A DNA stretch of 63,065 nucleotides, the filler included, from Folioceros fuciformis (Eukaryota): the NCBI GenBank assembly GCA_049999805.1. It is 16 parts of 16 records of this genome, joined end to end, with 100 filler letters (N's around TTAATTAATTAA, not from the genome) between each part and the next. Parts side by side here need not be neighbours in the genome. Positions count along the whole stretch, not along the records: positions 34,205 to 40,603 come from JBNGIO010001814.1; 15 more parts are not named here. One strand, given 5' to 3'. Made by a program: the position numbers and the translations under genes. This document shows positions 4,939-62,689 of the stretch, one piece after another. The first letter of the stretch is position 1; each line of letters opens with the position of its first letter. The notes beneath the pieces are model-generated. The model was not told the DNA's origin. It ran no database searches and worked only from the letters and a program-made list of their open reading frames with translations.

Positions 4939-5943
4939 ATGTTGGTTGCTATCTTTGACATTGTTCTCACAATAATGTGCTCTAGCCGTTGCTTCCACAA
5001 TGGACACATGTACCAGACACAGTTGGCCCCTATCACATCCAGTTTCCAGCTCCTAGGCAATCCCTTGTTCAAACACCTAGGTTTGCTAGTGCTGCCCAAC
5101 TTGGCTAAAGGGGAGGAGCCGGAACTTTGGGTAGCGTGCTCAGAGATGTTGGATCCTGGCTTCTTAGGTAGGGCCAAAAAGCTTGCCTGTTATGTGCATT
5201 GTGCAGTTGTACCATTGCAACCACAGTGGATGTGCAACGTCATAACAATGTGTTTTGACACTCTAAGGGAAGGGATGTATTGATGTCAAAGTTTGATGTC
5301 ATGATAGTACTGAAGGTGCCCCAATTTGGCCAAGCGTTTCAACGCCTTACGAATCTGAGACATCCATGTAGGAGGAGGCACAACACCACAAGTGGATGTG
5401 GGGATTTACGTCAAGGAACTTACCCCTCTGTGGGATGACAAACGTTATCTCCTATGGACAGGTCCAGACTACGTGTTGCAATCAACGCTTACCACGCCCT
5501 CTCTAACAACAAGACATGTGATCATATTCAAGCAACCAATGGATAATGGCAATTTCTGTTCCTTCAAATCACGTTTCCGCTTCACCTACAACAAGGTGGA
5601 GTGCTTTATAAGCTATACGGACTTCAAATGTAATGAGGAAAGTCCCCACCAGCTTTTTGAGGCAAGGAAAATGATTGTGGATGCTTGTGTTACGCTAGCA
5701 AGAGGATTGTTGTTTGGCTTGCTCATGGGTAGATCACATGCTTTCTTGTTTAGCGCCCAAAGCATAATAGACGCAATCAACATAGAGGTGCTTGAGAGGG
5801 GGTGGCTACATCACCCAAGAACAAAACTAGGAGTGTGATTTCATGTCACAGACTTCATGGGGAGCGAAAGGTATGTCTCTAATGTGATGGCCTACATGAT
5901 GCATCCTAACCCGAACATTGTTGTTGATCTTTGGAAAAGGTGA
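4939..5943 (+). pseudogene. Decayed unidentified reading frame, probably transposon accessory
   Basis: ORFs 4939-5283 and 5392-5838 are in the same frame and continue to 5943 through stops; globular-looking composition; no recognised motif. Confidence 0.3.
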
Positions 5944-15700: not shown

Positions 15701-17072
15701 AAGCTGTTCCCAGGGGAAGGAGATCTATAGACAATATTCTGGCTGACAAACTGTCACTCGATATTGCAGGATGCTCCCCACTCTTCAAGTCCATCTGGAG
15801 CAGTTACTTGGAGGTTAAACGATATATTATTCCGGGTAACTTTTCTCATGCGGATGATGTTCTTGGTATTCCTTTGCAGGGATTCTTGGGGTTGTGGGTT
15901 CAAGAGTTCAGGTCAAGGGTATATTGGTCACAAATTTTTGGGTTGGCTTGTCGTAAAGGCATTGTCCAGCTTGATCATTTATGGAATAGATTAGAGTCCC
16001 GTTGGAAGGAGGTAGAGGAGGTCAAAGGGGAATTTGGCCTAGGGGCCTGGCACGTCAGACTCATTTTTTTGTGGATGCTCGAGGGGCTAGAGGAAAAGGT
16101 GCAACAGATCGTAAGGCAACAACCTACCATAGGCGATGAAGGGTGGTATGCATATTCCATGGATAGTAGGGGAGTTGACTCAGAGGAGGAGGATGATCAA
16201 GAGGAAGCATTAGATTTAGATAGGGTGGTCTGGCTTGCGAGAGCTGATGACAAAGAGACATTGAAGTCGTTCAAGGTCATGTCGCAGGACGGTTTTTTGG
16301 AAGATCAGGGCAAAGATGACAGGGAAGCCTGAGGAGGGGAACTGCGGGCTATCACCGTCCTCTGTAAGTCCATTCGGGATGGGTGATGGTGCATTCCAGG
16401 CGAACGCCCAATTGGGCCACAAACCTCCGATAAAGCAAAGGTTCAGTGCTGGTTCCGTCTGGGTGAAAATTGGGCTCTAACCTTCAGACCATATCTCTAC
16501 AAGTGGCCCAAGCGTCCAGGGTGCAAGAAGGCTATGTCTTGATCTTTTTTCAACTTCCCAATGGCGGATTTGTTCCTTTGGTTGGTGCGAGCGCAGAAAA
16601 TCAAAGAAAGACAACCAATGGCTCCCCGTCTTCAGTTAGCTAGACGGCGACAAAGGGAAGCTATCAAGCTTCTATGGAAGTCCGCAGGAATCCCCCCCAA
16701 GGTCAGGTCTATGGTTTGGTATTTTTTTCAAGTGTGTTTGCCTAATGCGGATCGTTGGGATGGGCTTTTAGTTGCAACGGGGGAGGAATTGTATCGACTG
16801 TGCACCGTTGGGGCCTCGAACAAGAGTCAACACATGTTCTTTTACTATAGCTTTGCTCAAGAGATATGGAGGGAGGTAGGTAGGTGGCTTCGATTGATTT
16901 TTCCTGGTGTTAACCTCAGGATCACGACACAGTCAGCCTTATTTGGGCTGGATGCAACCTCGGGAAAACCTCTCCTTAAAACACAATGGTGGGGCTTACT
17001 GTGGTCTTCTTGCCTTTTTTATCTCTGGGTCAACTGGTCCTTGGTGGTCTATGGAGGATAGGAGTCAACTTC
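12748..17072 (+). mobile_element. L1-clade LINE (end of ORF1 plus decayed ORF2: APE endonuclease, RT, zf-RVT)
   Basis: IISWNVRG, VCLQEHK, NIYAHN, LAGDFN, SDHH, KSPGHDGIPPEF, LRPITLL, SLDFYKAYD, SVRQGCSLAP, AFADDT, GGLG, QHMFFYYSFAQEIW; multiple frameshifts. Confidence 0.95.
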
Positions 17073-27285: not shown

Positions 27286-28532
27286 CCGAAGGCAGGCCCC
27301 AATGACACTGTGGAGGGGTGCTGAATTGGGCAATGCAAAGTGAGGGCTGGTGCCTAGGGAGGAATACGGGCCATGGTAGCGACGTGTGCAATCGGAGGGG
27401 GGAATCGTATGCATCGGAGAGAAGCGTCTTCAACCACGGCTCTAGGCAACGTGCAGTGCAGGGGTACTTTCTGGGTCTAGAGAATGAGCAGCGGTGGAAG
27501 TGTCTGGCCGAGCGGCCGGTGTGGAGTACCAGGTGCCCTTGCAGAAAGGGGAAAGACGGTGGAGAGGGTGTGCCTCATCTACTACTAGAAGATGGTTCCA
27601 GGCAAGAGTGTTGTCACTTTGATACACTCAAAATCACCAAGTGGGCTGCCAGGAGAATGAGTGCAGACGAGGCTGGGGGATACCACCCCAACCAGAGGAC
27701 ATAGGTGGCATTCGGCTTGCCATCCGCAAGCAGCACGCCTGGTCGTTTGAAGGTAGAAAGCCCTTAGTACAGGCGTGCTCCTAGTGGGTGGGAAGCCCAG
27801 TGATGGTTATGTGGGCAGAGATGGTGGGTTGTTGCAGATGGTGGGTTGTCGCTTCCGATGCCAAGCCTACAAGGTGCTCATTCAAGGGCACTAGAGGGGT
27901 AGTTTTTCCGGGTCAGGGGTCCTTTTTCCGGGTCAGGGGTCTTGGCCAATAGAGTGGAGGGAGGGACCTGAGGGCGAAGGGGGTTGATTGTTGGTAGGGG
28001 CAACTAGTGTCCAAGAGGTAGCGGGCAATTAGGGTTAGGATGAGGTTAGCATTAGGCTTGGTTTAGGTGGGGTTAGGATTAGGTCATAATTAGGGTTAGG
28101 TTAGAGTTAGGTTTAGGTCAAAGTTAGGGGCGGCTTAGGTTAGAATTAGGGATAGGATTAGGTCGGAGAGAAAGACTATTGGCAGCGGACTGAGGCTAAC
28201 CCTAGTAGACAGAGATGGGGGTCCTGGGCCAGGGTAGTATAAGGGGCCAGACCTGCTATTGAGGAGGGGCGGTCTACGGTGTGATGTCCCCGGACCTTGT
28301 GTGCAAAACTCTTGGCTTAGGGCGCTAAGCCGGTTGAGACCGAACCGAGGTCCTGATTTCCCTTGCCACTAGGGGGACGTGGAGGTCCCAAGACTGTCAA
28401 GATCCGTGAGGCCGGATCCGCAAGGGCTGAATGATTCGCAGGCTAGCTGAAGTGAAGGAACAGGATCGTGAGTTGGAGGGCTATCCAGTCCTAGTATCCA
28501 CACTATGCTTGAAGGCTGCAAGGAGTGAAGCC
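27286..28532 (+). mobile_element. Large LTR-like repeat (family B) with TTAGG(G)-rich tract upstream of TATA
   Basis: Homologous to 50100-50590 (AGTATAAG...CATTGAGGAGGGG...CCTTGTGTGCA...CCACTAG...GGCTATCCAG...AAGGCTGCAAG); abuts an unrelated ORF fragment at 28533. Confidence 0.7.
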
Positions 28533-28702
28533 ATTCTCTATGTGGAAGGAGCCCAAGTTCTGAAGTTGTTTTTGTATGTACGTATGAGCACAGGAGGGAC
28601 GCGGGGCTACGGCCTGCAACTGAAGACTCGCAGGAGCATCTACTACTATCGCTGGCGGGTATGGGGGCTGCCTCATTGCTATTCCGAGGCAGTCCTAGAG
28701 GA
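28533..28702 (+). CDS. Fragment of the Athila-like LTR-associated ORF (aromatic domain)
   Basis: LYVEGAQVLKLFLYVRMSTGGTRGYGLQLKTRRSIYYYRWRVWGLPHCYSEAVLE aligns without gaps to the 39550-40602 protein. Confidence 0.8.
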
Positions 28703-28802: not shown

Positions 28803-29098
28803 TATTTAATCATTTAATATTATATACCTTTAATTAATATTAAACTAATCACCCAACCCTATGGCCTGGTACCGAACCTAAACCTTCCCAGGTCTGGGAC
28901 CAAACCTATACCCACTCTTATAACCAAACCAACTATTTCCTGGTCAATTAACCCAATTAGCACAAAGAAAAATAGGAAAAATGACCAGAAAATCAAGGAA
29001 AATTAGGGAAAATAAGTTGAAAAAGAAAACCAAACCATACCACTATTAACCCTTTTTCAACCAAAACAAACTACTACCCCAAACTTTGGAGGTTCACA
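28803..29098. repeat. LTR terminus, young high-copy family A
   Basis: Near-identical to 32517-32887 and 57057-57431; all end GGAGGTTCACA with different flanks. Confidence 0.9.
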
Positions 29099-29714
29099 TG
29101 TGCATCGAAGGTGGTTAGTGGAGTGGATGACTTGAGGTACTCTCGCTTGTACCACTTGGCCATAGCTCCACGCAGAACTCCGTAGAACAGCCAAACATGT
29201 TGCACGTCTCCTGCTTCCTAGTTGGCAATGGTCAGCTGCTCAAAATGCTGACAAAGTCGTCGGGATCCTCATACCCTTTCTTCTCCTCATACAGTGGGTA
29301 AGACTGCTTAGTGGTTACAGCTACTGGAGTAGTCATAGCGACTGTGGCAAGGTTCACAACGGCTGTAGTAGCAAATGCAACTACCACGCTGGGACTGACT
29401 TCTACACCCACAAAATTTGTCTGGACTGAAGTTGAGCAAGGCAATTTGGAATGGAGATCAACCAGCGGGCTTGGATCGGGGTACCTGGGCCCAGATACCT
29501 CCTCCCCACACGAGAGTTGCAGATTTGATTCAAGTGAAATTTGGCCTTCAGTTCCAGGCTGGCTCCTTGTCCCTCTTCCTTGTCCAACAAATGTGTTCCC
29601 CCGCTGCGACCTTCTGGCGACCCTCTGTAATCTCTCCGCCGCCTGACATTGCCGTCTTAGCAACAGTGTTTCTACACAATTAGGCTCAGAGTCGCTGGCC
29701 TTCACCCGAGGCAT
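29099..29714 (-). mobile_element. Athila-like Ty3/gypsy gag N-terminus (frameshifted, interrupted by family A)
   Basis: ATG 29714; YPLYEEKKGYEDPDDFVS then, in another frame, LFYGVLRGAMAKWY (Retrotrans_gag-like); 27-bp x3 repeat at 29732-29810 in the leader. Confidence 0.8.
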
Positions 29715-29844
29715 CCATCAACCTATCACTACCTAGACTCTCTATTCAGGCTACTCTATCTAGACACTCTATTCAGGATACTTTATCTAGACTCTATATT
29801 TAGGTAGTAGTTACTCCTACCTACGTTCTTGACAGCAGTACATT

Positions 29845-29861
29845 TCCCGGCAACGACACCA
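29845..29861 (-). promoter_or_regulatory. tRNA-Asp-type primer binding site (Athila-like)
   Basis: Minus strand LTR end TCCACA-TTT-TGGTGTCGTTGCCGGGA, versus the Athila-type TGGCGCCGTTGCCGGG. Confidence 0.85.
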
Positions 29862-29864
29862 AAA

Positions 29865-31680
29865 TGTGGAGGAAAATGTTTTGTTCGAGTCCACACAAAC
29901 CCTTTATGTCATTGTAGCCGTGGGAGCCGATCCCAAGGGAATGATTTGTGCCAAGTAACACATGTTTCTTCTACTACTGGCTCTTACTTAGGTCGGACCT
30001 TATCCCCTACCACTTTTACTACGTGCCAGCTTCCTACTACTACCCCCCAGTTAGCCTAGCTATCGTGGACCCTACTCTACGTCCCTGGTTCCTGCTCTAT
30101 GACCGGGATTGGGGTTTCCACAACCACTAGCACCTCTATGATCGATTGAGGTTTCCACAATCTGTAGCGGATTCCGCTACTGTGGTGGGTCCCACCCCAA
30201 GCCCTAACTAACACATGTCGACGCGGGTACCATCACGGGTTTCTGCCCGGAACCCCCTAAGTCGCGGGTTGGGGTTTATTGATCACTCCTCACACCCACA
30301 AATACACACTTAGACAACCCGGTTCCACGAGGCAACCACACCTTGCACTTCACACCCACATGGCGCTTCCAGCACACACCAAATCTCCCACGTACAGGTA
30401 CTCCTCACAACTCGCTCCCAAACATCTCCAACTCACAGCAGCGTCCGCGATTCCCCAGTGGTTTCTCAGTGATTCTTCACACCACAGACTCTTAACAGCG
30501 TTCCACAGTGTCCAAGAATTCCCCAGCAATCTCGTCTCAACCTTAACATTCTTCTCAAACACTCAGTCTCATAGCACACCCGTTCGCGGCCAACAATTTG
30601 GGAAATAAGGGAAGGAGAGACACTCCCTCCACTCCGCGGTCGGCAGATTTGTCTCCCTCAACTTAGCCACAGGCATGACTCACTCGTTCTCGTCTCACTC
30701 GCTTCTTCTCTCTTCTCCTTGTTACATGGTCACGTCTCAAACACTCACTCACTCTAACACCAAGTTCATGTTGCAGCCAACAGTTGGGAAATAAGGGAAG
30801 GAGGAATTCTCCCTCCACTCCGCGCAGTGGGCGGGTTCGTTTCCCTCCCTCAACTGCAATGCACAGTTAGTCTTCACCTCTACTCACTTCTCACCACTGT
30901 ATTTGAAAAGCACTTGAAGAGTCAGGGAATAAGGGAAGCGGGCACCCCTTCTTCCACTTTGCTCATGGGCGGATTCGTCCCTCTCACCTCAACCGCAAAC
31001 CACAGTTCGTCGATCTAGGGAATAAGGGAAGGATCGTTCTCCCTCCACTCCGCGCAGTGGGCGGATTCGTGCCCCTTCACTCCTACTGCGACACACAACG
31101 CGGATTACGGGGGATAGGAGAAGGTTGCCTTTCACTCGATGAGAAGCTCCACCGATTCGTCCCCGATACCACCCATCATGGAGTAGAGATATCGCCCACG
31201 CCTTCTCTTAGTAACGCCGCACGCACTTGCCTTCCCGGATCTCCCTATCCGGTAGCAGCTTTCGCCAAGCTTCCACAGGTTGGGATGTCAATTTCTCACT
31301 GCTTCGGTGAGGCGCCAACAGGCTTCTTGTACACGATGGCAGGTCTGCAGCCACCATTAATTCTAGTCTGCGGATAGGCTGGCGCTCTTAATTATGAGTG
31401 GCATTAGATCCAAGAAAGTATCTTCTCCAGATCCTACAGTATACTATTCTAAGATGCAATAACTATGGCCTATCTTATCGCCGCGATTGCCTCCTGTCCG
31501 GTCGTCGCGCTCCTCTTGCCTGCCAACCTTGAGCCCTCCTCCCTCGCCTTTTGTCAGACAAATCCTCCCACAGGATTTCTACCTCACCACTGCTGCTTGA
31601 CCTTTCCAGTGACGGCATGGGTGGGCCCCATCGAGGGGTGCTCCTTCCTCCCTCCATTCGCTTGTTGTTGAGGACCATCA
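29865..31680 (-). mobile_element. Athila-like long LTR adjacent to the PBS, including the C-terminus of an accessory ORF (31475-31680)
   Basis: Colinear homology with 38287-39770 at the terminus, the repeated motifs, the TATA region (GCTCTTAA on +) and EVEILWEDL...RRGRRA. Confidence 0.8.
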
Positions 31681-32416
31681 CGAGCTCAAGAGGGAAGGAG
31701 GCCGAAGCCTGGAGGCAGCTGGCGGAGTCCAAGACGGCGTGACAGCTCCTAGAGGAGAAGCAGTAGGTCCTGAGTGAGGACAAGGCACAGGTGGAGGAAG
31801 AGGCGCACCATGCGAAGGTAGAGATACAAACACTGAAGGAGCAACAGGGGAGACTCCTAGCTCAGGTGAGGGAAGCCCATGAGACTAATCTGGAAATGCA
31901 AAAGGAAATGGCTAAGGAGCAGGAGATGGCCGCGATGGAACAAGTTCAGAAGCTGGCCGACAGGTACAAACGGGAGCGGGACGAGGCCAGGGAGCGAGTA
32001 AAGGGGAAGGGCAAGGCTGGGCAAAGTAGCCGAATGGCGACGCCGGTAGCCAACGGGGCTACTAGTAGTCGAGTCCCAGTGCCGGTAGCTGACGGGGCTA
32101 CCAGTAGTCGAGTGGCCACGCCGGTAGCCGAAGGGGCTACCAGTAATCTTGTGACACCTGAGGTAGCCGAAGGAGCTACCGGTAGAGGAGGGACGACGCC
32201 GATAGCCGACGCCCCGACCTTGGTTGTCGAAGAAGTGCTGGCAAAGGTGCCTGTGCCCAGGCGCTCCAGGAGGGTCACTCGCGCCAGGCGGACTGAGCCG
32301 GGGAAGTAGCAGCAGCTGGAGGGATGGAGGACCCTCAAGTACCCTAGGAGAGCAGGGGACAAGGCAGCCCAAGGTAGCCCAAGGGAGGAAGGGGTAAGCA
32401 CCTTCTTTATGACAGA
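31681..32416 (+). pseudogene. Inverted N-terminal part of the LTR-associated ORF (coiled coil plus 13-aa repeats)
   Basis: AHETNLEMQKEMAK...QKLADRYKRERDEARERVKGK, PVADGATSSRV repeats, PRRSRRVTR, EEGVST; matches 39550-40602; a few in-frame stops. Confidence 0.85.
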
Positions 32417-32516
32417 NNNNNNNNNNNNNNNNNNNNNNNNNNNNNNNNNNNNNNNNNNNNTTAATTAATTAANNNNNNNNNNNNNNNNNNNNNNNNNNNN
32501 NNNNNNNNNNNNNNNN

Positions 32517-32887
32517 GACATACCCAGATACCCGTTCCTATGTTCAAACCATTATTTTATTATTATTTTATTTTATTATTATTATTTTATTATTTAATCA
32601 TTTAATAATTATATATCTTTAATTAATAGTAAACTAATCACCCAACCCTATGGCCTGGTACCAAACCTAAACCTTCCCAGGTCTGGGACCAAACCTATAC
32701 CCACTCTTATAACCAAACCAACTATTTCCTGGTCAATTAACCTAATTAGCACAAAGAAAAATAGGAAAAATGACCAGAAAATCAAGGAAAATTAGGAAAA
32801 ATAAGTAGAAAAATAAAACCAAACCATACCACTATTGACCCTTTTTCAACCAAAACAAACTACTACCCCAAACTTTGGAGGTTCACA
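32517..32887. repeat. LTR terminus, family A
   Basis: Near-identical to the copies at 28803 and 57057. Confidence 0.9.
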
Positions 32888-33064
32888 CGGAGGTAGGGCA
32901 GGTAGTCCGTCACAGTCTCGTCCCAAATTGTTGCAGATTGGTCCGAATTCAGAAGGCGTTCGGACAGGTTTGCCTCACAGCCATGGGCATGAGGGCATGG
33001 ATCCTGCACCATACTATCACATCGAACCCACCCACAGCAATGGGCCAAACCCCGTAAGGAAACG

Positions 33065-34104
33065 TTGCTAGTGACCCTGCGGACTGGTGCCACAACACCT
33101 CCAGCTGATCCTACAAGGCAGAAACACCCCTGCCAAAGACAGGTGGTGGGTGACCAGAACACCAGGCAAGACAACTCAAACCACCAACAGTTAGAGGAGA
33201 GGACTAGCCGCTTGGAGGCGACTTGCTGGGAAGTCACAAAGACCCTCAACGGCCAAGATCGAAAAGTGTGTGCCATTGTCGAAAGATTGAGCCGAGTTGA
33301 GTCCTGCTGGGAGGAAGGACAAACATGTCTAGAGCACCAATTGATCGGTCTCCTACAGATGCTAGAGCAACCCGACTCTGGACCCAACGCCAATACCCAT
33401 CCCGGCGAGGCAGAGGCACACCACTCAACCTTGTCATCACAACCCGACTACTAACTGGAGTTTCCACCCAAAAAAACCGTCCTGCCTACGCCCATCACAA
33501 CCTGTGAACATAGGGACAAGGAGAAAACAACCTTAGTGGGATAGGCAGTACCTATGCAAACAATGGAAGATGACCAAACACTACGGAAGTTGGTGGTTGA
33601 ACTCTTGCCTGGAGAAGGTGAGAATAAAGACATCCGAGCCCTAGTCCGTAGGTTGCAACTTCTACGTTACGAGCAAAAGCGATCACGTGAAATGGTAAGG
33701 CATATTAAGATCATCTAGAATCACACGTAAATGATGCGATGTTCTGACCCCAAGTATACTTGGATAAGGAGCTACAGCACAAGATTAGAACCACCACATT
33801 CAACAGGAGCGAGAAGTACGCATAAGCAATTCATGAGTGGCTGGACAAGATGGACAAATACGTGTGTGCGTGACGAAGAAGGATGACCAGCAAAAAATCC
33901 AATTTTGTGTAATATCCTTGGAGGGATATGCGTATCAATGGTGGCGGTTGCGGGAGAAACAAGTCAAGTTAGGTATGGAGACCCCCATCCTCAATTGGTC
34001 ATTCTTTCAGCAAATCTTCTTGGAACACTTCCTACCAGTTAACCACAGGAGGGAACTCTACCACCAGTTTTGGAAGATTCACCAACAAGGTACAACACAA
34101 GAAT
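33065..34104 (+). mobile_element. Decayed Ty3/gypsy gag
   Basis: LEGYAYQWW...ILNWSFFQQIFLEHFLP...ELYHQFWKIHQQG (Retrotrans_gag-like), preceded by a coiled-coil-like segment. Confidence 0.8.
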
Positions 34105-34399
34105 NNNNNNNNNNNNNNNNNNNNNNNNNNNNNNNNNNNNNNNNNNNNTTAATTAATTAANNNNNNNNNNNNNNNNNNNNNNNNNNNNNNNNNNNNNNNN
34201 NNNNGTATACGGTCCGTATACGTATACCCCCTATATTTTATAAGGTTTATATCTATTAGATACGTATTTAATACGTACTGATATGTATACCGTATACGTA
34301 TCCTCATATTTCTTTTCTTTTTATTTTCCTAATTTCCCCTTTTCTATTTTCATCCCTATTTTTCTGGATTTAATTCCAGAAATTCCAATTCAACTCCGT

Positions 34400-35769
34400 T
34401 TCACCTGCTTTCTTTTCCTCTTAGTTCAGGGCCTCCCCCAGCACCCCAGGGTTAGTCTTCCATGGCCGAGGAACCATTTCGGCTGGAAGCTGATCCCGCT
34501 AAATAAGCTACCGTTTTCAGGCAGGTTCCAGCTGTCGATCCCACTCCTTCCCACCTCTTCTCTATCTTTCCCACTTCTCATACTCCTTCCCTGGAGGCTG
34601 GCTTAGCCACCAAGGGTGAACAGTTGCAGGGGAAGACTCAGCGGGCGACCATCCAGCAAGGAAGAGGCGGCGTCCGCAGATCTTTGAAGATCAGACATCC
34701 TCCGAAGTCTCTGGATAGTCTAAGAGGTGGTAGATCCTTGTGGTGGTAGGGCCAGGAGCTCATTGGTGGCAGGTTGTGCTAGAAGTCTAAATAAGTGGCT
34801 GGTGACAGCCGGCTAGGCTATTAAAATAATATTTGTCAAGTTAGAGAGAGGTGAAGTCAGAGAGAGAGAGAGGCTCCTATAAGATCAGGTGAGCCTATAG
34901 GAGGAGGGAGTCATTCACTTTGGGAGTCAGTCTATCCCTTCGTGAGCTCTTGGAGGTCCTCTCTTCATGAGCTCTTGTGGTCTATCCCTGCTTGGTTTAG
35001 GACCTGCAGTGTGTTGCCGGCTGTGCAACGTCTGGTAGGATCGCAAGCCGTGTGTTGCCGGCTGTACAGTGTCTGGTAGGATCGCGGGCAGCGTGTTTCC
35101 GGTTGTATAGTGTCTGGTCGGATCACAAGGTGTAATGACCAGGGTGTAGGGGCTTGCCCCTAGCTCTTGATTGTAAAGGATGTGTCTTTCTCTCGACCTG
35201 TCCACTCTTGTTCCTTGCTTGGACAAGTGCTGTAGGCCGTCCATGTCTCATGGTGTCTGGTAAGGTTGTGGGGAGGAGATATCCAAGAGGGGAGTGTGTT
35301 CCCTTCTTTCTTTTCTTGAGGGTTAGTCTAGTGACTCTTGCCGGGTAGGAGGAGTTAGCAGGGAAGTGTAGAAGGTAGTGGTGTCGTTGCTGGTAGTTGC
35401 TGGTGTTGGTGCCGGAGTGAGAGAGTGAGTGAAGTGTGTGAGGGAAGTCGCAGATCTGAGAGGTTAGAGTCGTTGTAGTGACTGGAGTGAGTTTGTGGGC
35501 ACCGAGAGAGGTGCAGCTGACCGCCGGACAGCGAGGCCTGTTCTACGCCTGATCGGAGCTGGAGGGGAGCCCTCGAATCCATCATCGAGTCGATCAAGTC
35601 CGACCCTCCATTCACAGCAGCAAGGAACCCCATCGCTCCTTCGTGGGAACGAAACCCAATGTCTCAACGACAGTGGGATAAGTGTGGCCACTAAAGGTGG
35701 AACCCGTTGGCAATCAGTGCCCGGGGTTTTGCCTCCACACTCCACGCGCTGGTCTGGTGGGTGGTGACA
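34400..35769 (+). mobile_element. LTR-like segment containing a 41-bp x3 tandem repeat (35006-35128)
   Basis: CCTATAAG TATA-like site at ~34876; repeat units at 35006, 35047 and 35088; ends GTGGTGACA at 35769; left boundary uncertain. Confidence 0.5.
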
Positions 35770-36899
35770 TAGGCTAGGAGCTCTAGTCAATTGGCCTGCC
35801 CCGTTGGCACACTCAATACCCAATTCCATCTTCATGGTCATCCTTTGCACTGTTGTTGCTGACGATTTGCCTCTCCGCTTGCTGAGTTGAGAGGTAATCA
35901 CTCATGATGTCTTCTTCCCATAGATTCTCATCAACACGGACTGGTGTTGTTGGATCTATAGGCTCTGATTCCAAAGATGCAACAATCCAAATCTGTAGAC
36001 GTTGCTTAGTGAGACTCTTCACAACCTTTCTCGCCCTCCCATTGATGTTCATTCCTTATAAGGCCTTGGATGGGTTCAGTCCAAGAGGCTTGAGACTGCT
36101 GTTGGGAGGTTGTTACAATTGTGCTCTTGCTGAACACAACTAGCCATCCTAATTGTACCCTTAACACCTAATTACCCATAGTCTATTTACCATCTGCCCT
36201 AGTTTACCTAGTGTGTCTAGTCACGGTGCCTATTTGGCACTTATCCTCTCTGCAATGACTAGGATGGTGAGTGGAGGAGTTAGGGGTACCTCTACTGAAA
36301 GTTGGTTGGTGTAGAACAAGACTTCATTCGGGTTGCGAGGTCAGCCAAGCCATGGCTATGGCATAGGGCCTCTTTCATGTGGAGGCCATGTTGTGATTGC
36401 TGGGTGTAGGCATAAGCGTTTGCATGTTTGGCTTTAGCAAGAGGGATCACAACAACCATTTATACTTGAGAGGACTAGAGCTGGCAAGCGATATGGATGG
36501 ATGTCATTGCTCATAAAGGGAGACGATAATTAGAAGGATGCCAAGGGGACTTAGCTTCATGCAGGGCACATAGAGGTCTGTAATCAATACAACACCCGAG
36601 TTTCCGTCTATTGGAAAATCAAGTTCGGTGCACATGTCGGCAGATCTTGGGAGAAGAGAATTCGACTACCAACACCAAATGAGGGAAAAGGATGGAGGAG
36701 ACGTCGATGAGGAGGTCGCGTCTGATGAAGAAAGTGGCAATGTTTAGCATCTATGTCAATGTAGATTGTTTGGCAATGTCATCCATACCATTGAAACAGG
36801 GCCAACATCCATTACATCAGCCAAGCATCATGCCAATGGAGCCAAGAATAACAGCTCCTTCATCTTGAAAATGCAAGGTGACACCTTGAAGGCGGCCAG

Positions 36900-38286
36900 C
36901 TCTTTGACAAAATGAAGATATGTATCAAATCGGCACATTCGTGCAAAGAAATTGTGCGTACCATGCTTGATTCAAAGGACATAGGAGTCCCATTGCTATC
37001 ACAAAGGCTACTTGTTAAGGATTGGTAAGAAATTCATAGAGCAATTGAGGTATCAATTTTCTGACATTGGGCGGGGAGTAACAGGAGCTTTTTTTGCAAG
37101 GCTTGCTGGAGGAAAAGGTTGGCTCGGATGCACTACTCAATGTTTCCATTTATCTGTTAGGAGAGGATAAATTCTCGCGTTGTGTGAAAAGTTTTCGGAA
37201 GGTGTTTTGCATAGGCTGGGAAAGGTACTAGGACTTAAAGAAATGGGTGCTACTCAATGTGCCATGGTCTTTGGAGTTGAACAAATAGACTTGATCAAAA
37301 GAAGACCATGTCTTGGAGTGCATTTCTTGGATGTATCACTTCTTCAAGTTGACCTTCGAGAGGCTACCCAATGCATCTCTATACCACCTTACCGATTCGT
37401 ACACCAAGGGAGAGATCTTTTTGGAGTACAAGCAAGAAGTATGCAATGAAGGTCTCACCAACGTCTCCCATTCCCACTTTTGTGCTCTCTCGAAATGTAC
37501 TTCCCAAAAGTGAAAATTCCAAAGAGCAATAGATTCTCCAACTGCGTTGAATGTGAAACTTTGAAGTATGTGATTGAGAATGCAAGTGACCGCCTACAAT
37601 AAGGTAAGCCTCCCGCCTCACTTTGTTAATAAGAAATTGGAGGCCTAACACGCTTAAGGCACCTACTAGAGGCCAGTCGCACCCTTAGGTGCGTCAACGT
37701 GCCTTGGTGCACCATCTAGCCCGCCAATGAGGACTGGCAAGTACTTGGGCAACCCAGCTGCCCTAGCAAGCCAGATGTGTTGGCGATGCCACTAGCACAC
37801 GGATTGGCATAGCAAAAGTCCCATATGCGCCCGGTAGGGATAGGTGTTTTTGGGATGCTGCAAATATGGACACAAAAAAGCCTGACTCTCTTGCATCTTG
37901 TTTGCTGCAAGAGTCTTATGAAGCCAAGTTGTCTTGAGTGCCCATCAAGAATAGATTTAAGAGGACAGAGCAAAGCTAGGGAAGCATCGATGCAAATGTG
38001 AAGGCAAGCCAAGTCAATATATTGGAATGACAATATATGGAATGGACTAGAGCAAAATGGAACTATCAAACTTCACAAGACCTCCAAAGGATGTTGCTAA
38101 GGGGCTCATCTGCGTTCATCTTATGGGCTACCTTGTCTACAACACTAGAATGTGGACAAAAGTTTTCCTCAACTTCCCGAACATCTGAAATGACGCAAAA
38201 TTAACAATTCATATCATATAGGATGTCATTTCTAACTACAAAGGGGTATTGCCCAAGACTTTTTATCCACAGCTGGACAACAATGC
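36900..38286 (+). mobile_element. Sola-like (DUF7869-type) DDD transposase pseudogene, interrupted by the Athila-like LTR
   Basis: YHLTDSYTKGEIFLEY...VSHSHFCAL, FPKVKIPKSNRFSNCVEC, MTIYGMD*SK, VHLMGYLV, NDAKLTIHII, LPKTFYPQLDNNA ending at 38286. Confidence 0.7.
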
Positions 38287-40603
38287 TGTGGGGTTAAAAT
38301 ATGGTACCCGGGGGTACCGCGAGGTCCACACAAGCCCTCTATGTCGTTGTAGCTCTGGGATTCGATCCCAAGGGAATGATTCGTGTTAAACTACACAGGT
38401 TAGCTTCTAAAGTCAATTAGCACCTAAACTCGACTGACCCACGCACACACCTCCAGTGCTCAGTCCTTACCCAGCCCCCTTACTTCTCCCACCAGACGAC
38501 TCTCCTAGCACCCAGTCACACCAGGGGGACTACCTCCCCCTGGACTACTCTTGGTGGGCCACCGGACTACCCTCCATTCCCCAATGGACTACTACCGTCG
38601 TCTTTCGGGCTACCACTCGTGGGCCCCACTCTCTCTCTCTCTTTGTCTCTCTAGGATTTTCTCTCTCCGAGTCATCCCTACCCGGCTGTTTTCTCGCGCT
38701 TTCCCTTTTGCGCTTTCCTTCCTTGGTTCTCCACAAAATCGCCTCTCACCCTCAGGATCAAACGCACACACATATGAACAGCAACAATCTGCCGATCGCC
38801 TTCCACCCGTGTGATTTCACACTCTAGGTACACCCTCTGCAGTCTCAAATCAACTTCCTCACAGTCTCTCCAGTCTCATCGCGGCTAGTCACTCATACAC
38901 ACCACGTCTCGTTACACATTACTCACCTCGCTTCCAGGGTTTCTCCGGCTTCGTTCTCCACTCACCAGTTTTCGATATACGTTCTCCTTGTCTCTGGTTA
39001 CTCGCTTCTCCTCTTTCTCACACACGCGCACCCTCGCGCTTCTTTTTTATCCAATCCTCCGTCTTCTTTCTCAGCAATGCCCCTCCTGGGCTTCCATGAA
39101 CATTGAGGAATGGTGAGGTACCGGAGCTAAGGGAAGAGGGACCTCTTCCACTCCGAACTCGCGGATTCGGCTCCGACACCCACACCACCCACGTGACCAC
39201 TCCGAGGATAGCTGGGGAGCTTCTCTCCCACTCGGCGAGGCTCCTCCTCCCGATTCGTCCCCTGACCTGATCACGGAGCGCCCACCACCTACACCCGCAC
39301 CCCAGGTTGCTACGTGCGCTCGCTTGCCTGGACCTCCTATCCAGCAACGGCCATCGCTAGGTTCCTGCAAGGTCGACTACTCGGCTGGTGTTTTGCTCCT
39401 TCCTTAGGCCTTCAAACCGGCCTCTTGTACACGGTGATGGCAGTTTTTCCGCCATAAAGTCTGTCAGGCAAGGGGGCTGCGCTCTTAAATTCTGAGCGAC
39501 TTGGGTCCAAATAAAGCACGCTAAAAAAAACTATTCTAGCCTGCATTTACTATCGCCCTGTCCTGCGCCACTGGCGGCTTCCTCCTGGCCTTCGCACGTC
39601 ACCCCTCGCTGCTCCTCCTCTCGCTCTTCTGCCCCTCCGTTGATCCGGCAGGTCCTCCCAGAGGATCTCCACATCATTGCTGCTGTTGCTGGGCCTGGCT
39701 GGCGGTGCAGGTGGGTCCCGCCGCTGTGGTCCACCACCCCTCCTCCTTCTCTGGTTGCTGAGGACAGCCACAGGCCCCCGTTCTACCCAGCGTTGGGCCT
39801 CCTCTTCCGTCAGTTCCTCCAGAATTGCCTCCGCATAGTAGTGGGGCAGTCCTGTCACCCACCATCTGTAGTGGTAGAGTCCCAGGCGCGTCCTCAACTG
39901 CAGCACGTAGCCCCGCGTCCCTCCTGTGCCCATACGTACATACAAAAACAGCTTCAAAACCCTGGCCCCTTCTACATATAGTACTGGCACATAGGAGGCC
40001 TCCTCCTCATACTGCAGCACAATCCGACCTTCTGTCATCATAGAGGTGCTTACCCCGTCCTCCCTTGGGCTACCTCGGGTTGCCTGCTCCCCCTCCTGCT
40101 GGGGTACCTGAAGGTTCTCTGCCTGCCCAGCTGGTGTCTCCTCCGGTTCTGTTCTCCTGGTACGGGTCACCCTCCTAGAGCGCCTAGGGGCAGGCGCCCC
40201 TATTGCTTCCTCCTTTTCAAGGGTTGGTTCTTCAGCTATCCTGGGCCTTGCTGGGCCACCGGTAGCCCCATCGACTACCCGACTACTGGTAGTCCCGTGG
40301 ACTACCGGACTATCGGTAGCCCCGTCGGCTACCCGACTACTGGTAGTCCCGTGGACTACCGGACTACCGGTAGCCCCCTCGACTACCGTTCCCCTGGTTC
40401 GGCTACCGGTAGCCCCGTCGGCTACCGGGGTCGTCGTTTGACTTGGGCGCCCAGCCTTGCTCTTCCCCTTCACTCTCTCTCTGGCCTCATCCCGCTCCTG
40501 CTTGTATCTGTCAGCTAACTTCTGAGCCTGCTCCACAGCGGCTATCTCCATCTCTTGTGCCTTGGCCATTTCCTGTTGCAACTCCAGGTTAGTCTCGTGA
40601 GCC
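38287..40603 (-). mobile_element. Athila-like 3' or solo LTR with accessory ORF
   Basis: Terminus homologous to 29865 but flanked by the Sola-like target instead of a PBS; TATA-like ATTTAAGAGC at ~39490 on the minus strand. Confidence 0.8.
39550..40602 (-). CDS. Uninterrupted accessory ORF (>=350 aa, open at the contig edge): coiled coil, VADGAT repeats, aromatic domain, Arg-rich tail
   Basis: Open frame with homologues at 28533-28702, 31475-31680 and 31681-32416. Confidence 0.85.
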   Translation of the reverse strand, partial: AHETNLELQQEMAKAQEMEIAAVEQAQKLADRYKQERDEARERVKGKSKAGRPSQTTTPVADGATGSRTRGTVVEGATGSPVVHGTTSSRVADGATDSPVVHGTTSSRVVDGATGGPARPRIAEEPTLEKEEAIGAPAPRRSRRVTRTRRTEPEETPAGQAENLQVPQQEGEQATRGSPREDGVSTSMMTEGRIVLQYEEEASYVPVLYVEGARVLKLFLYVRMGTGGTRGYVLQLRTRLGLYHYRWWVTGLPHYYAEAILEELTEEEAQRWVERGPVAVLSNQRRRRGGGPQRRDPPAPPARPSNSSNDVEILWEDLPDQRRGRRARGGAARGDVRRPGGSRQWRRTGR

Positions 40604-41213
40604 NNNNNNNNNNNNNNNNNNNNNNNNNNNNNNNNNNNNNNNNNNNNTTAATTAATTAANNNNNNNNNNNNNNNNNNNNNNNNNNNNNNNNNNNNNNNNN
40701 NNNAGTAAAGAGCTTACCTTGTACGTCCTTTGCTTTTGTGAATCCAGCTCTTTGGATTGATACGTTAGTTAATTTCAATAAATTTCTTAAGAAGTGCATC
40801 TTTCGTATAAGCTAGAAGAATATTCCTCGACATAAAACTAATGGAATTTGACTGCATGCTTTGTGATGGATAACATCCATCCAAGTCTGGCACGAAACTA
40901 CCGAGAGCTGCAAAGGGGAAAAGCTAGGATGGTACGCAGAGAGTTTGTGCGCCCTCCAACATTGACTCACAGTCATCAGGTTGGCCAAGTAACGACTACG
41001 GGCCAAAGGCGTGTGGCCACGAGAGGGGAAGGAAATGTGGAGTCCAACATTTCATTGTGATGCACACCTTTCACCGACTGAAGACGTGGTTGGTGGTCCT
41101 TCAAAGACCAGGACTCGTCTACGACTTGTTGACGCTCCTGATCCTTCTTGAGAAGCTGAAGGAAGCTATAAAGGACCGTGAGAGCTTCTACAGCGTGAAG
41201 TGTGAAGCTCACA

Positions 41214-41845
41214 ATGACGACGGCGTCCATGTCTTGGTTCAAGATGAACGGAAGAGTCCGCAGCTTGGCAGCATCATCTCTGGCACTGGCATTTGTTGTG
41301 TGTGCGCTACTCGGAGCAGCAGAAGCTCAGTCGGAGAGTAATGTGTACACCACTTACAACTTGTACAACGCAGCCGGGAACAACTGGTCGCTCAATGGCC
41401 TCTACTGCGCGACTGTGGACAGCGGCCAGTCGCTGGCCTGGAGGCAGCAGTACCTATGGACTGCCTACTGCGCCCCTGCTGTTCCCATGGATCTCAGCGT
41501 CTGCGGCCGCTGCATCTTGGTCGGTGTCCTATCCACTCTTGCGGGATTCGCAACTTTGAATGCTCAATTAGGTCGTCCAAGATGAAATCCATAAACGCAG
41601 TGTCGACGTCAAGGAATGGAACGCTGAACGAAGTGTCCAGATTGAAACAGAGTACTCATGACGCTGCGTTGTGATCGCAGGTGACAAACCCAGGCACAGG
41701 AGCCAGTGTGGTTGTGAGGATTGTGGACAAGTGTGCCAACGGGGGCTTAGATCTGGACCAGCCCGCCTTCAATGCCATCGACACGAACGGGGCCGGCTAC
41801 AACGCGGGCCACTTGTTCACCAGTTACACTTTTGTGAATTGCTGA
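41214..41845 (+). CDS. PR4: Barwin-domain pathogenesis-related protein 4 (class II, secreted); exons 41214-41519 and 41681-41845
   Basis: TATAAA at 41167; signal peptide ending [58 protein letters not shown] intron; the start may be ATG 41229 or 41244. Confidence 0.96.
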
Positions 41846-56852: not shown

Positions 56853-57431
56853 AAGGTGGGAAGGGAGATGAGAGGGAAGGGGAAGAAGAAGGAGGGGGGC
56901 AAGAAGGGAATGGAGGAGCAAGGAAGAAAGGAAGAGAGGGGGAAAAGGGATGGGGACGGCCGCAACCCTTGCCTCTAGCTCTAGCTAGGGCATGGCCTCC
57001 ATGGCCGTTCATGCCAGCCAAGCAATCAGCCAGCCTATCGTCAGACCCTGACCCCTGACACTGACATGCCCAGATACCCGTTCCTATGTTCAAACCATTA
57101 TTATATTATTTTTATTATTTAATATTATTATATTATTATTTAATCATTAATATTATATATCTTTAATTAATATTAAACTAATCACCCAACCCTATGGCCT
57201 GGTGCCGAACCTAAACCTTCCCAGGTCTGGGACCAAACCTATACCCACTCTTATAACCAAGCTAACTATTTCCTGGTCAATTAACCTAATTAGCACAAAG
57301 AAAAATAGGAAAAATGACCAGAAAATCAAGGAAAATTAGGGAAAATAAGTTGAAAAAGAAAACCAAACCATACCACTATTAACCCTTTTTCAACCAAAAC
57401 AAACTACTACCCCAAACTTTGGAGGTTCACA
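56853..57431. repeat. LTR terminus, family A, inserted in copia RT
   Basis: Near-identical to the 28803 and 32517 copies; copia RT resumes at 57432. Confidence 0.9.
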
Positions 57432-60400
57432 CCAGGGCTTTCAAGATACTGAGAAAGTACGCTTGTGGCGTAGGTAACATCATGTCATGTTGTGTTGGCT
57501 GCATAGATAAATTTGCCAATGCCCTTCCTATAAGGAACTGACCTCATTTCATCTTTCTCGCTTTGTATTTCAGGGCTCATGGACTCGCTAAATTTCAGTC
57601 CACAAGGTAATGGGGTAGCTGCTGGTTTTGCTTCCTTCAAGCCAAGCTGTTCAGCACATTCTAACAAGTAGCGAGGGTGAGTAAGAGATATAGATCTATT
57701 TTTCCTATCCCTTTGAATAAGAACCCCCAGACGGCTTTGTAGAGCTCCAAGGTTCGTCATTTCAAACTTGGTAGCTAACAGGTTGTTAATTTTGGTGATG
57801 AATGTGGGGCTATTGGAGGACAAGATCAAATCATCCTTGTATACTGCCAGATAGCAAACCACATCACCGGATCTGTAAACGTACAAGTTGCTATCTGAAA
57901 CACACTTCACGAAACCTAAGGATCGCAGCTCTTCATCTAGGACAACATTCCATTCAAGAGCTGACTGCTTCAGCCCATGCAAGGTTTTTATAAGGCGTAA
58001 GACGTAATCCTCTTTGCCCTTAACTTTGTATCCTAGTGGTTGCTGCATATAGATTTCGGTGTCGAGTTTGCTATGCAAAAACGCTGTCTTTACATCAAAC
58101 ATGTCTAACTCGTAGTCCTAATGTGTTGCCAAGGCACAAATTGTGCGGAAAGTGGCCAGCTTCATGACAGGAGCATGTCTCAAAGTAATCAAGACCAGGC
58201 ACTTGTGAAAAACCATGAGCTACGAGTCGTGCTTTGTACCTGTCAAACGTTCCATCTGCCTTCACCTTTAATTTAAACACCCACTTGCATGATACCACCT
58301 TTCATCCAGGAGGTAACTTAGAAAGTTCCCATATCCCATTTTTGATCAATGAATCATAATCTAATTGTATAGCCTCTTTCCATTAAGTAGCATCGGGACG
58401 GCTAAGAGCTTCTTCATAGGATTGAGGTTCAATTTGATCCAAAGAAGTGGTTGCATTAGCTGTTGGTTTTCAGAAGTCTTGTGACTGGTAGTAATCTGGT
58501 GCCCGTCGATCTCTTGCATGATAACGGCGCTCAAATGGTGGAGGCTATCCAGGTTCAGGTGGTAAAGGCTGAAGTGTAAGTTCACCTTCTGCATCACTAT
58601 CTAAAGGATCAGCATAGTCAACAGCTGTATCCTCATCAGAATCTGGAACTGAAATGGGATTGGGTAAAAGGTTAGGTGGTGGATTAGGTTCTGCAGCATT
58701 TAGAGGAGGTTGATGTTGCAAGTTAGCAAAGTGTTGTGCATCATCCTACTCCTACTCATTAGGTAGTTGTTCTTCCCCCCCTACAGGAGCAACCTCCTCG
58801 GGTATAATATAAGGGAAAATAGTGACGGCGGGCAGGGTAGAGAAGTCAAGTTCCTCTTCTGTGGGAACAGCTCCCACTAGCTGCCAAGTGCGACCTTCAT
58901 CAAACGCCACGCTGCGTGCATAGACCACCTTGTTTTGAGGTACGTCATAAAGTTTATAAGCCTTGATACCTTCAGTATATCCTATCATGAGGTATTTCTT
59001 GGCTTTAGCAGCTAATTTGGATCTCTGGGCCTTAGGGATGAAAACATATGCAACACAGCCGAAAGTCCAAAGATGTAGGATAGCTGGCTTTCTGCCATAG
59101 AAAGCTTTGTAAGGGGTCTGTCTGACCACAATCGTTGTAGGCAGTCTGTTATGGAGAAACACAGCTGTCATGAGGGCTTCAGCCCAGTATGATAGAGGCA
59201 ATGAGGCTTGATGAAGCATAGAGGAAGCCATCTCCTGCAAGGTCACGTTCAAGCGCTCAGCAACACCGTTTTGCTACGGTGTATAAACAACAATAAGTTG
59301 TCTCCCAATGCCTTCATCCTTGCAATAGGCTTGAAATTCGTTTGATGGGAATTCACCACCATTGTTTGAACGTAGAGTCTTTAGCTGTACGCCTGACCAT
59401 CTCTCTACAAGTTTCATATAGTCTTTAAACAGAGAGAAACACTCATGTTTAGCTTTCAAAATGTAAGCCATGGACAAATCTCGTTTTGTCATCTATAAAT
59501 GTGAGGAAATATCTACCTCCTCCTATGGAAGGCTGCGAAAGTGGCCCACATATATCAGTGTGCACAAGTTCAAGAACGACACAAGCCCTGCGAGGAGCCT
59601 TGTTCTTGAAAGCTGCCTTATGGCGTTTAGACAACAAACAAGCCTCACATGAGGGTAAGGGTGGGAAATTGCCAATTTTCCTGTCACCAAATAGGTCACT
59701 AACAGCTAGTTTCTGTAACTTGGCGCTGTGAGGATGACCTAATCTAGTATGCCATAACATAGCCTTCACTTTCTACTTTGCAAATATCTCAGAAGACTTG
59801 GAAGCTAAATGGGCTATGGTAGTGCTAATGTGAGTGTGCAACCGAAACAGGTCAATGTCTAACGAGCCATAGGCTAGAATCTTTCAATGATCAAAAGCAT
59901 CTAGGATTCTACATTCTGTTGGAGTGAATAGCATATGTGTGCTGTTATCCAAATTGAGTCTCCTAACAAAAATGAGGTTCCTAGTCATTTCAGGCACGTT
60001 ATACACATCTGTGAGTGAGAGTGTAATGCCTGAAGGGACAAGAAGCTATACTGTGCCAATGCCTGGGCACACAAGCCTACTATTGTCACCTAGGTAAACA
60101 AAACTATCTTGAACTAACCTATATGTGACAAATGCATTTCTATCGAAACAGATGTGCGCTGTGGCACCTATATCAAGGAACCACTCCAGTATGGGTTTGC
60201 CTTGAGTATTCATCGATAGACAAGTTGGATTAATAAAAGGGTGAGTAAACTCCCTAGTCCGCACCGTGAGCACAAAAGGCAAGCCTTGTTTTGTCACAAT
60301 AACATGTGTCTAAGAAGTGGAGTTGCCCTCCTTGCGAGGTACTATGGATTGCTTCTTTCGACACTCATTCTCCCAATGGCCTGGAATTTGGCACCAGTGG

Positions 60401-62689
60401 CACTTTCTAGCCTTCTTGGGTTTCTTATGTGTAGAAGCTCTATGTGAGCTACTAGCACTTGAGGTATTCTGTTTACCTTTGAAGTTGGGCTTTTTGCCCT
60501 TTACTTTGTTGTGAGTGTACAAAGCTTGCTGTTTACAAGGACGTTTAAATTGTCCTCTTGTAGCCTCTTCCTGAAGAAGGGCTCCCACAAATTCTACAAA
60601 TGTGGTTTTGGGGAGATCAACACCTACAGCCTTAGCTATCTTACGACCTTGTAGCTGCAAAGTGTTGAAGGAGGTCACGAAATGTAACCAAGATTCTGGG
60701 AGGGACATCATGAAGTGTAGGATAAGTGCTGAGTCCTTTACACTTTCCTGTGTTACACTTTCGAATTTAGAGACAAGAGTTCTATAAACGGCTAAATGTC
60801 TATTGATAGATTCTCCTTCTTTCGTTTTCAAATTTTGTATATTGCAAAGAGCTGCCATTTGAGTTGTGTCATCCGTTCCTGCATACAGATCCTGGAGCCG
60901 CGACCAGATCTTAGGTGAGGTATCACATCTAGAGGTCTGTCTCAACATATCAGTTGTCAGCTCACTCCGAATCAGGTATTGTGCAACTCCATCCTTAACT
61001 GTCCAGGCATCCTGTGCCTTCTTTTCAATAGTACATGGAGTAGATGTAGTGGCAAGGAACTTTTCTTTCCCGTTTGCCCATGCCCACAATTGTTTATTTT
61101 GTAAGGCTCCTCGCATTCTAATGACCCAGATATCATAATCTGCCCCCCCAAATCTATCCTTCTCCCTAAATCCCTCTCCCGCTAAATTAGCATTAGTGTC
61201 ACCCATGTTTGATACTGTTGTTAGTCCTCCTCACAGTGAGGATATTATGGATGAACAACTAATCTTCCTGTCTGACCTATCCAATGCAGATCAACAGGAA
61301 TAAGGATTCGGGAATAATTTAGAATGCAACTGGCACATCAAGAGTAAGCAGCAGACCACAGCCTACTTATCACAAAGGTAAGATGGGTTCAGACTCCTGA
61401 TCAGCTCTACGTAGGTTGACCATCTGCCTGTCTACCTGTTCCCTTCTGTTCTGATTCTTAATCTCCCAACGATTAAATGCATAGGTTAAGCACGATGGAC
61501 ACGAATTTGGGTGATCAAAAGTATGATGCCTTTTAGCCTTAGATGCATGCTTACATGCCGTACCCCTAATGGCAGGATTAGCAAGAAGAGCAGGCTTCAA
61601 CAAAGCAAGCAACTTGAAATCTAAGTGCCCAATCCGCTCCAGCAAAACTCGAAAATCTTTAGTGACAGCAACAAGCTTCTAACTAATGTTTTCAAAATGT
61701 CTATCTACATATGCTAATGTGCTTCTAACCTGGAATTTAACTGTGATACGCTTGTGTGTGGTGCAACATTTGTGGTAAGAAATCCCCTAGGATTACATTT
61801 ACTATCAAAAGCTCGCTGCATGCGCACTTCTGGGAGATTGTGAGGATTCCTCAGTGGAGGGGCAAATGCCAGATGTTGATGTTCTGGAAAGAGGGCTTCA
61901 ATTTGAGTAGTGAATGACTCCCTCACTTCAAGCGCTAGAATTGGTTGATTGCGAGTGCATGCAGCCCATTCCGTGACTTGCTGATGGAGCTGCTTGGCAG
62001 TGACCCGTCTTGTTGCATTTGCTTGCGCACCTTGTCCCCTTCGGTGATTTCATGGTTCTTCAAAGGGGATCAGCCATTTTGGGCCTGGTTGCCCGTCCTG
62101 AGGATCAGCCATTCATCTGGCCAGAATTCTTGTGTTTTGGAAAATTTCAAGATTCATTTTGTAATTTCTATATGATTTCATAAAGATATTTGCCACTTCT
62201 GGCAGTCGTTCTAGCATGCCTCGTGTCACATTGCTTTGTAGCAATCCGGCAACACATGCACTAGAATGGGCTCCTAGAAATGCAAAATTTCTGAATACAA
62301 ATCAACAAAGATAAACTACAAAAAACATGTTCTTGTTTTCTTATTAGAAACTATTTTCTAATCAAGAAACAAAACACATAAAATATATATACATAATTTA
62401 ATGTGCATTCTCATGAATGCAATCTGCACCTGTCATGGCTCTAATACCATAACAAAATATAAGAATAGTACATATCAATTACATGTTTAGTAATTACATT
62501 GTCATATGTTCATAAGAATATGAAGTATCTAAAATAGCTTGGAAACTAGACTTAATCTAATTGTGAAAAGGCATGACCTTTGGGCTAAAGACGTAACCCT
62601 AGCGAACGGGTAAGTGGCCACACATTCAAATATATATGTATACACACTAAATATGTAGATATACCCAAACCCTAAATAATGAATCAACA
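57432..62689 (-). mobile_element. Ty1/copia element: LTR 62450-62689, PBS 62438-62449, 1.2-kb leader, gag 61206-60310, decayed PR/INT/RT
   Basis: TGGTATTAGAGC; CHWCQIPGHWENEC; WFLDIGATAH; LWHTRLGH; VHTDICGP; CKWVFKLK...YKARLVAHG; DVKTAFLH; LHGLKQS; LAVYKDDL. Confidence 0.96.

Follow-up and report, generated by a model that had tools for sequence, protein, structure and literature searches.

A selected accessory reading frame of an Athila-type retrotransposon in Folioceros fuciformis and its probable overlap with the 3' long terminal repeat

In human and simian immunodeficiency viruses (HIV/SIV), the accessory open reading frame (ORF) nef overlaps the polypurine tract and the U3 of the 3' long terminal repeat (LTR). 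In mouse mammary tumour virus (MMTV), the sag ORF lies wholly inside U3. The Tat/TAR and Rev/RRE systems combine an Arg-rich peptide with a structured RNA target. This study was concerned with an accessory ORF (P0001) on the minus strand at 39550..40602 of a stretch of Folioceros fuciformis DNA (assembly GCA_049999805.1), which is 63,065 nucleotides long and is referred to in full as the window. The ORF lies at what appears, from a primer site and LTR size, to be the 3' end of a high-copy Athila-type Ty3/gypsy retrotransposon on that strand. The reading we prefer, with a probability of roughly 0.6, is that of a sense accessory ORF in the slot after pol, with its last 73 codons crossing into U3 at 39772. 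The product would be a new protein, unrelated to known ones, in the known Athila slot, and the U3 overlap is probable.

The window consists of 16 contigs (1.4-6.8 kb) and 15 spacers of the form N44-TTAATTAATTAA-N44 (e.g. 40604-40703). These are separate contigs joined together, so order and distance across different contigs are meaningless. Copy A of the element lies in the contig at 34205-40603 and copy B in the contig at 28803-32416, while a third fragment ends the contig at 27286-28702. Public contigs from four runs were aligned to 37900-40602, and two of these runs, X1 and X2, represent one sample. The sequencing runs listed as carrying the sequence included no RNA run. The contigs of the family that aligned numbered 1133 in X1 and 1342 in X2, and the summed contig depth derived from them is not equal to copy number. 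The family is high-copy, because this many contigs were aligned and because the summed depth was 10^2 to 10^4, compared with 27-72 in the flank.

The closest described plant elements are those of the Athila group. An excerpt of the FIDEL paper gives LTRs of more than 1.2 kb, an aspartate transfer RNA (Asp-tRNA) primer site and an extra ORF as the marks of Athila/Calypso, together with a 19-letter Asp-tRNA primer site, and an excerpt of the ATHILAfinder preprint gives a 13-letter ATHILA primer-site motif. In the portions of this literature available, ATHILA LTR length is quoted as 1-2 kb, Athila-specific ORFs of unknown function are described, and the extra ORFs of the group are placed between pol and the LTR.

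The locus resembles these elements in several respects. Copy B carries the primer binding site TGGTGTCGTTGCCGGG at 29861-29846 (minus strand), three nucleotides (TTT) after its LTR end. This site matches the excerpted ATHILA motif at 11 of 13 letters, both differences being C>T, and matches 14 of the first 16 letters of the site quoted from the FIDEL paper. About 0.8 matches at 11/13 would be expected by chance in the whole window, and that of copy B lies 3 nt from an LTR end. No tRNA genes were found in the window, hence there were none to compare with this site. With the preferred LTR start the LTRs measure 1486 bp (copy A) and 1816 bp (copy B), and with the main rival start, given below, ~1260 and ~1590 bp. 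Thus, the Asp-tRNA-type primer site agrees with Athila/Calypso, a non-chromovirus lineage of the OTA superclade, and so does the LTR length under either start. An earlier sequence-only reading of this DNA had described an Athila-like retrotransposon with a protein-coding ORF, and the primer site, the LTR size and the coding ORF all support that description.

Coding evidence and the junction of the ORF with the LTR

The comparisons between copies clearly indicate that the ORF is a real coding sequence under protein-level selection. The visible frame runs for 350 codons to a TAG stop (39552-39550). At the other side the contig breaks off at 40603 and truncates the N-terminus, and the visible frame showed no start codon. 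Thus, of the intact ORF of at least 350 amino acids proposed earlier, it is the 350 open codons that stand. The ratio of nonsynonymous to synonymous substitution rates (dN/dS), a check that the sequence-only reading had suggested, was 0.36 over 173 codons against the N-terminal fragment beside copy B, and 0.17 over 57 codons against the core of the third copy. The copies compared are paralogues, and their divergence is partly decay after insertion.

The Arg-rich C-terminal tail had been described as conserved between diverged copies, and the comparison of copies A and B bears this out. The peptide motif VEILWEDL[P/S]D[Q/K]RRGRRA (residues 311-327, 39622..39672, minus strand) differs between the two copies at 14 of its 17 codons, 12 of the changes being silent and two residue-changing (dN 0.053). 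Its 16 nucleotide differences fall 5/0/11 at codon positions 1/2/3. By our own arithmetic, the probability of no second-position change among the 16 is ~0.0015 under even hits, which argues that this block was kept as a peptide and not merely as a DNA motif. For the tail as a whole dS is saturated, so no tail-wide dN/dS is given. Among the best-supported family variants listed (n = 34), 15 were synonymous and 19 were not, a mild excess of silent changes. In addition, a 3222-nt contig from run X4, which represents a second organism of the same study, matched 39483-40073 (ORF core and tail) at ~88% identity. The rest of the LTR was almost wholly unalignable to this contig, the alignment ending at 39483, which is 67 nt past the stop. 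Thus, the ORF is conserved across related species and the LTR is not.

The most likely 3' LTR of copy A occupies 38287..39772 (minus strand, 1486 bp), starting TGTGG and ending CCACA. Its 3' boundary at 38287, where the LTR end reads ...CCCCACA, is firm. Two contigs, from X1 and X2, matched the flank-LTR junction (37900-38312) with 0 differences, the summed contig depth in the last LTR bins was 5495-9053 as against 27-72 in the flank, and 20-30 contigs diverged into unlike sequence at 38296. The conserved 3'-terminal block of the LTR (38296..38401, minus strand) has 81% identity to 29889-29973 of copy B; it holds the deepest bins of the compared stretch and has loose ends on both sides. A TATA-like box, ATTTAAGAG, lies at 39490-39482 (minus strand) and begins 59 nt past the ORF stop, in agreement with the ~60 bp noted earlier. 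Neither LTR contains another AT-rich box of this kind, and its LTR position is 284 in copy A and 287 in copy B.

The start of the LTR is the point on which the overlap depends. Copies A and B are collinear from the LTR end back to 39772 (A) and 31680 (B) only, that is, from codon 277 onward. In an ungapped comparison in 10-nt bins there were 1-5 matches upstream of 39772 and 7-9 downstream. Where collinearity begins, the sequence of copy A is TGTGG, which mirrors exactly the CCACA at the end of the LTR. TGTGG occurs six times in the 2316 nt of the minus strand, which gives a chance of ~3% of meeting it within an 11-nt window. Directly before 39772 lies the purine-rich run GGGTAGAACGGGGG(CC), a candidate polypurine tract.

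Copy B provides the junction. Its predicted 5' LTR (29865..31680, minus strand, 1816 bp, TGATGG...CCTCCACA) belongs to a contig which reads, along the minus strand, ORF tail (31680-31478), LTR ending ...CCTCCACA at 29865, TTT, primer site and decayed gag. Adjoining the start of this LTR is an inverted ORF fragment of another copy (31682..32416, plus strand). The fragment, interrupted by in-frame stops, covers residues 1-190 and ~65 codons before them; its coiled-coil-like frame comes first, and it has 55% identity to ORF residues 1-190 (tblastn). About 30 upstream letters obtained from loose ends at 40596-40599 agree with it. The simplest account would be that the ORF of an older copy received an insertion of another copy in reverse orientation, in which case the junction would be the 5' end of the LTR. 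The earlier statement that the same C-terminus precedes a primer site and gag in this copy holds for the order of the parts, with only the last 73-74 codons in line and the sequence upstream inverted. The further claim that the C-terminus behaves as part of the LTR is sustained in copy B for the Arg-rich end.

From these comparisons, ORF residues 277-350 are probably inside the LTR (U3). The last 73 ORF codons, including VEILWEDLxDxRRGRRA, would then at the same time be polypurine tract and U3, of which they take up the first 222 nt. Reverse transcription places U3 at both ends of the element, so that 5' and solo LTRs would carry a dead tail, and this would explain the tail copy in the LTR of copy B. 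For a boundary between internal sequence and LTR within the ORF, the copy B junction and the TGTGG/CCACA termini agree, and neither the loose ends listed nor the depth marks a clear boundary at 39772.

Several points weigh against this reading. First, the LTR start is taken from a single junction in a single short-read contig, that of copy B, and an intra-element inversion or an assembly chimera would look alike there. Secondly, among the loose ends listed for 38402-40602 there were at most four contigs per place, compared with 20-30 at the LTR 3' end; the pile of foreign flanks expected at 39772 is absent among those listed, and there is no clear step in summed depth at that position. Third, copy B starts TGATGG and not TGTGG, and 39450-39900 holds 11 TG sites with at least 12/17 preceding purines, including those at 39736, 39601 and 39545. 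Purine runs with TG are frequent because the Arg/Gly codons of the tail are purine-rich, and the polypurine-tract argument is therefore weak. Lastly, neither contig A nor contig B contains pol, its end and the ORF start being beyond the contig end, so the lineage is read from the primer site and the LTR size; no gypsy pol domain was found in these two contigs or in the 20 longest ORFs of the window that were scanned. Locating the polypurine tract by purine content was also tried, and with the same 11 candidate TG sites it was rejected as uninformative.

The explanation that survives best beside ours, which we judge rather unlikely, is that the ORF is wholly internal and the LTR starts just past its stop, at about TG 39545, after the purine-rich GACAGGGCGATAGTAAA. 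Such an LTR start, between stop and TATA-like box, had been named in the sequence-only reading as a finding that would speak against an ORF in U3. A purine run (13/17) followed by TG is indeed present at 39545, TGCAT stands at the matching place in copy B, no loose-end pile was seen at 39772 among those listed, and the contig of the related organism can be aligned through the ORF and stops 67 nt past the stop codon. Short-read assemblies often collapse both LTRs of high-copy elements, which favours this explanation too. It also has costs, as copy B would have to be a shared-LTR tandem, a recombinant or a collapsed-LTR assembly path and, in addition, be rearranged at codon 277. These are two independent oddities in one copy, the break would have to coincide by chance with the TGTGG site of copy A (~3%, 11-nt window), and TGCAG mirrors the CCACA end poorly.

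Another explanation, which we consider improbable, is that the open frame belongs to pol, as a C-terminal extension of its polyprotein reading on as far as the LTR, and is not a gene of its own. In line with this explanation, the frame stays open as far as the contig reaches and shows no start codon, and in copy B a coiled-coil-like reading can be followed for 65 codons or more upstream of the first visible residue. The explanation must also accommodate 350 residues without integrase or any Pfam match, and in the available descriptions of Athila-group elements integrase is separated from the 3' LTR by a considerable stretch of sequence and by a separate ORF.

The version of the sequence-only reading would have an LTR longer than 2.3 kb that encloses the entire ORF and is present with it at either end, as for MMTV sag, and this we find very improbable. 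In its favour, the core depths (4552-7629) are near those of the terminal block (5495-9053) and no strong pile marking an LTR start was seen among the loose ends listed for 38402-40602. Against it, summed contig depth is not copy number, the ATHILA LTRs described in the text available are shorter, at 1-2 kb, and the sole copy with primer site and gag is collinear only from codon 277 and inverted beyond, so that the LTR shared with copy B holds codons 277-350 only and at least 276 codons lie upstream of the likely start at 39772.

Layout of the visible protein and searches for relatives

The visible 350 residues fall into five parts. Residues 1-47 (40462..40602, minus strand) are predicted to form a long coiled-coil-like helix. 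In the AlphaFold2 model, made from the single sequence, the helix spans residues 2-47 with a predicted local distance difference test score (pLDDT) of 93-97 for the block, and it is the sole confident part of a model whose mean pLDDT is 46.8. Residues 48-125 (40228..40461, minus strand) are Gly/Ser/Thr/Pro-rich tandem repeats (51% G+S+T+P) that vary between copies. Tandem Repeats Finder placed an array at 40258-40428 in copy A (27/54-nt units) and at 32025-32211 in copy B (39/78-nt units), the number of units differs among copies, and the contig of the related organism has a 30-nt insertion here. The basic patch RRSRRVTRTRR lies within residues 126-195.

Residues 196-276 (39775..40017, minus strand; YVEGARVLKLFLYVRMGTGGTRGY...) are the most conserved core. 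The third partial copy of the ORF core, which corresponds to residues 206-262 (28530..28702, plus strand) and is cut by the contig end, has 74% amino-acid identity to it over 28530-28700, and the summed contig depth within the ORF peaks at the core (4552-7629). Residues 277-350 (39553..39774, minus strand) form the Arg-rich tail, with 26% R+K and a net charge of +12, and are the part collinear with copy B.

With a maximum 19-residue hydropathy of 1.21, the visible 350 residues contain no transmembrane segment and are therefore not env-like. Nor did they match a Pfam ATHILA ORF. The N-terminus, where a signal peptide would lie, is absent from the visible part.

Searches for relatives of the protein returned nothing that could be used to place it. 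For example, Pfam gave no family at E<=1 for the 350-residue ORF, and a word-indexed search among proteins of similar lengths gave 0 matches. HMMER against 1.84 billion representative proteins gave four matches, all to low-complexity repeats at residues 68-123. A search of the ESM Atlas with residues 185-350 gave nothing usable, the sequences of the PDB gave a single chance-level match (E 0.83), and no viral contigs carrying the protein were found. Thus, the ORF protein is without a detectable homologue, family or confident fold. In a separate trial, 23 metagenome-contig loci with a 20-nt degenerate tail pattern were examined; these were chance matches, none being related by tblastn/blastn.

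The repeated LTR motif and other features of the window

A motif of ~65 nt is repeated within the LTR. Copy A has two copies (A1, 39195-39265; A2, 39122-39190; together 39122..39265, minus strand) and copy B has five (30590-31165). The sequence-only reading had noted repeated fold-back motifs downstream of the TATA-like box, and the motif is indeed present in both copies and can fold. RNAalifold, run on the seven motif copies, gave a three-helix consensus of 16 pairs. In the alignment 91% of cells were paired, compared with 83% in shuffles and 51-67% with the 3' partners slid. Seven pairs were changed on both sides, compared with 2.5 in shuffles, which indicates compensatory pairing. G-U pairs are used in the motif, which favours the sense strand.

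Two points count against the folded-RNA part of our reading. When folded singly, the motif copies were no more stable than shuffles (z -1.9 to +0.6), and the seven sequences used to score the structure were also those from which it had been obtained. Rfam gave nothing at the gathering score over 28803-40603 and nothing at E<=1 over the LTR of copy B. The motif could be an RNA signal or equally a DNA enhancer repeat.

Downstream of its LTR, copy B carries a putative decayed gag remnant (29099..29717, minus strand), and an unrelated repeat, rich in AT, breaks it off at 29098. It was assigned to gag by reading the sequence and because it follows the primer site; no Pfam family was found in the single open frame scanned (29235-29717). 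The leader between primer site and gag contains, at 29729-29804, a 27-nt tandem repeat of 2.8 copies (85% matches). The AT-rich repeat, of ~296 bp, occurs on three contigs (28803-29098, 32591-32887 and 57137-57431) with 97-98% identity and resembles a young, unrelated mobile element. A 41-nt tandem repeat of three copies (81% matches) lies at 35006-35129, within the low-copy flank of copy A.

The contig neighbouring copy A in the window contains a Barwin-domain ORF (41199-41582, plus strand; Pfam E 1.6e-17), a likely host defence-related gene. Other mobile elements were also seen. A copia-type element at 423-2405 (plus strand) has gag, protease barrel and integrase domains in one open frame of 661 residues, and another at 57488-61230 (minus strand) has gag, SH3-like and RVT_2 pieces. 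Fragments resembling long interspersed nuclear elements lie at 14193-17058 (plus strand; RVT_1 and zf-RVT) and 8316-9083 (minus strand; RNase H and zf-RVT). The copia and LINE pieces together with the Barwin-domain gene indicate a plant source.

Proposed role and comparison with described systems

In the visible protein, a coiled-coil helix would be joined by a disordered repeat linker to a basic patch, behind which come the conserved core and the basic tail. The protein may oligomerise through the helix and bind the element's own RNA through the basic tail, and the genomic RNA would carry the ~65-nt motif at least once. As to the class of function, we tentatively suggest a chaperone, export or packaging helper for the element RNA; this is a possible role and somewhat less than an even bet. 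A self-contained pair, in which the U3-encoded tail would recognise the LTR RNA motif and aid export, translation or packaging or shield the RNA from silencing, would be a plant counterpart of Rev/RRE and Tat/TAR. By analogy with those systems it can be imagined, and we regard it as highly doubtful. The module for activation, RNA export or anti-silencing that the sequence-only reading proposed is likewise conjectural.

Extra ORFs of plant LTR retrotransposons are common, and almost none has a known function. The selected short peptide and the covarying LTR motif offer two testable handles on an accessory protein of Athila type. If the overlap is true, the evolution of the protein and that of the promoter and integration signals would be linked, each LTR of a high-copy family would spread a dead tail copy, and pipelines which assume that ORFs end before the LTR would misplace the boundaries of such elements. 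If it is not real, the ORF would be an ordinary accessory ORF of a new family. A narrow word search, with figures and supplements outside its scope, found no description of plant LTR-retrotransposon ORFs overlapping the 3' LTR.

The element resembles the Athila group in its Asp-tRNA-type primer site after an AT-rich spacer, its LTR of 1.5-1.8 kb, its sense ORF upstream of the 3' LTR and its high copy number. It differs from Athila-group ORFs in having no transmembrane segment in the visible part, no Pfam match and a probable entry into U3. The likeness to nef applies if the LTR starts at 39772. In that case the ORF would overlap at its 3' end with the polypurine tract and with 222 nt at the beginning of U3, and copies of the LTR would carry a non-functional tail. 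Unlike nef, the ORF has no relation to it in sequence or fold, belongs to a different host kingdom and has its overlap from one junction. MMTV sag is similar in that coding sequence lies in the LTR; here this would be at most 73 of at least 350 codons, with the body of the ORF upstream. In Tat/TAR and Rev/RRE the peptide and its RNA act together, whereas the peptide and motif described here are known as sequence ingredients alone, with no Rfam match. What the element shares with those two systems is a selected Arg-rich C-terminal peptide alongside a repeated LTR motif with a conserved sense-strand fold.

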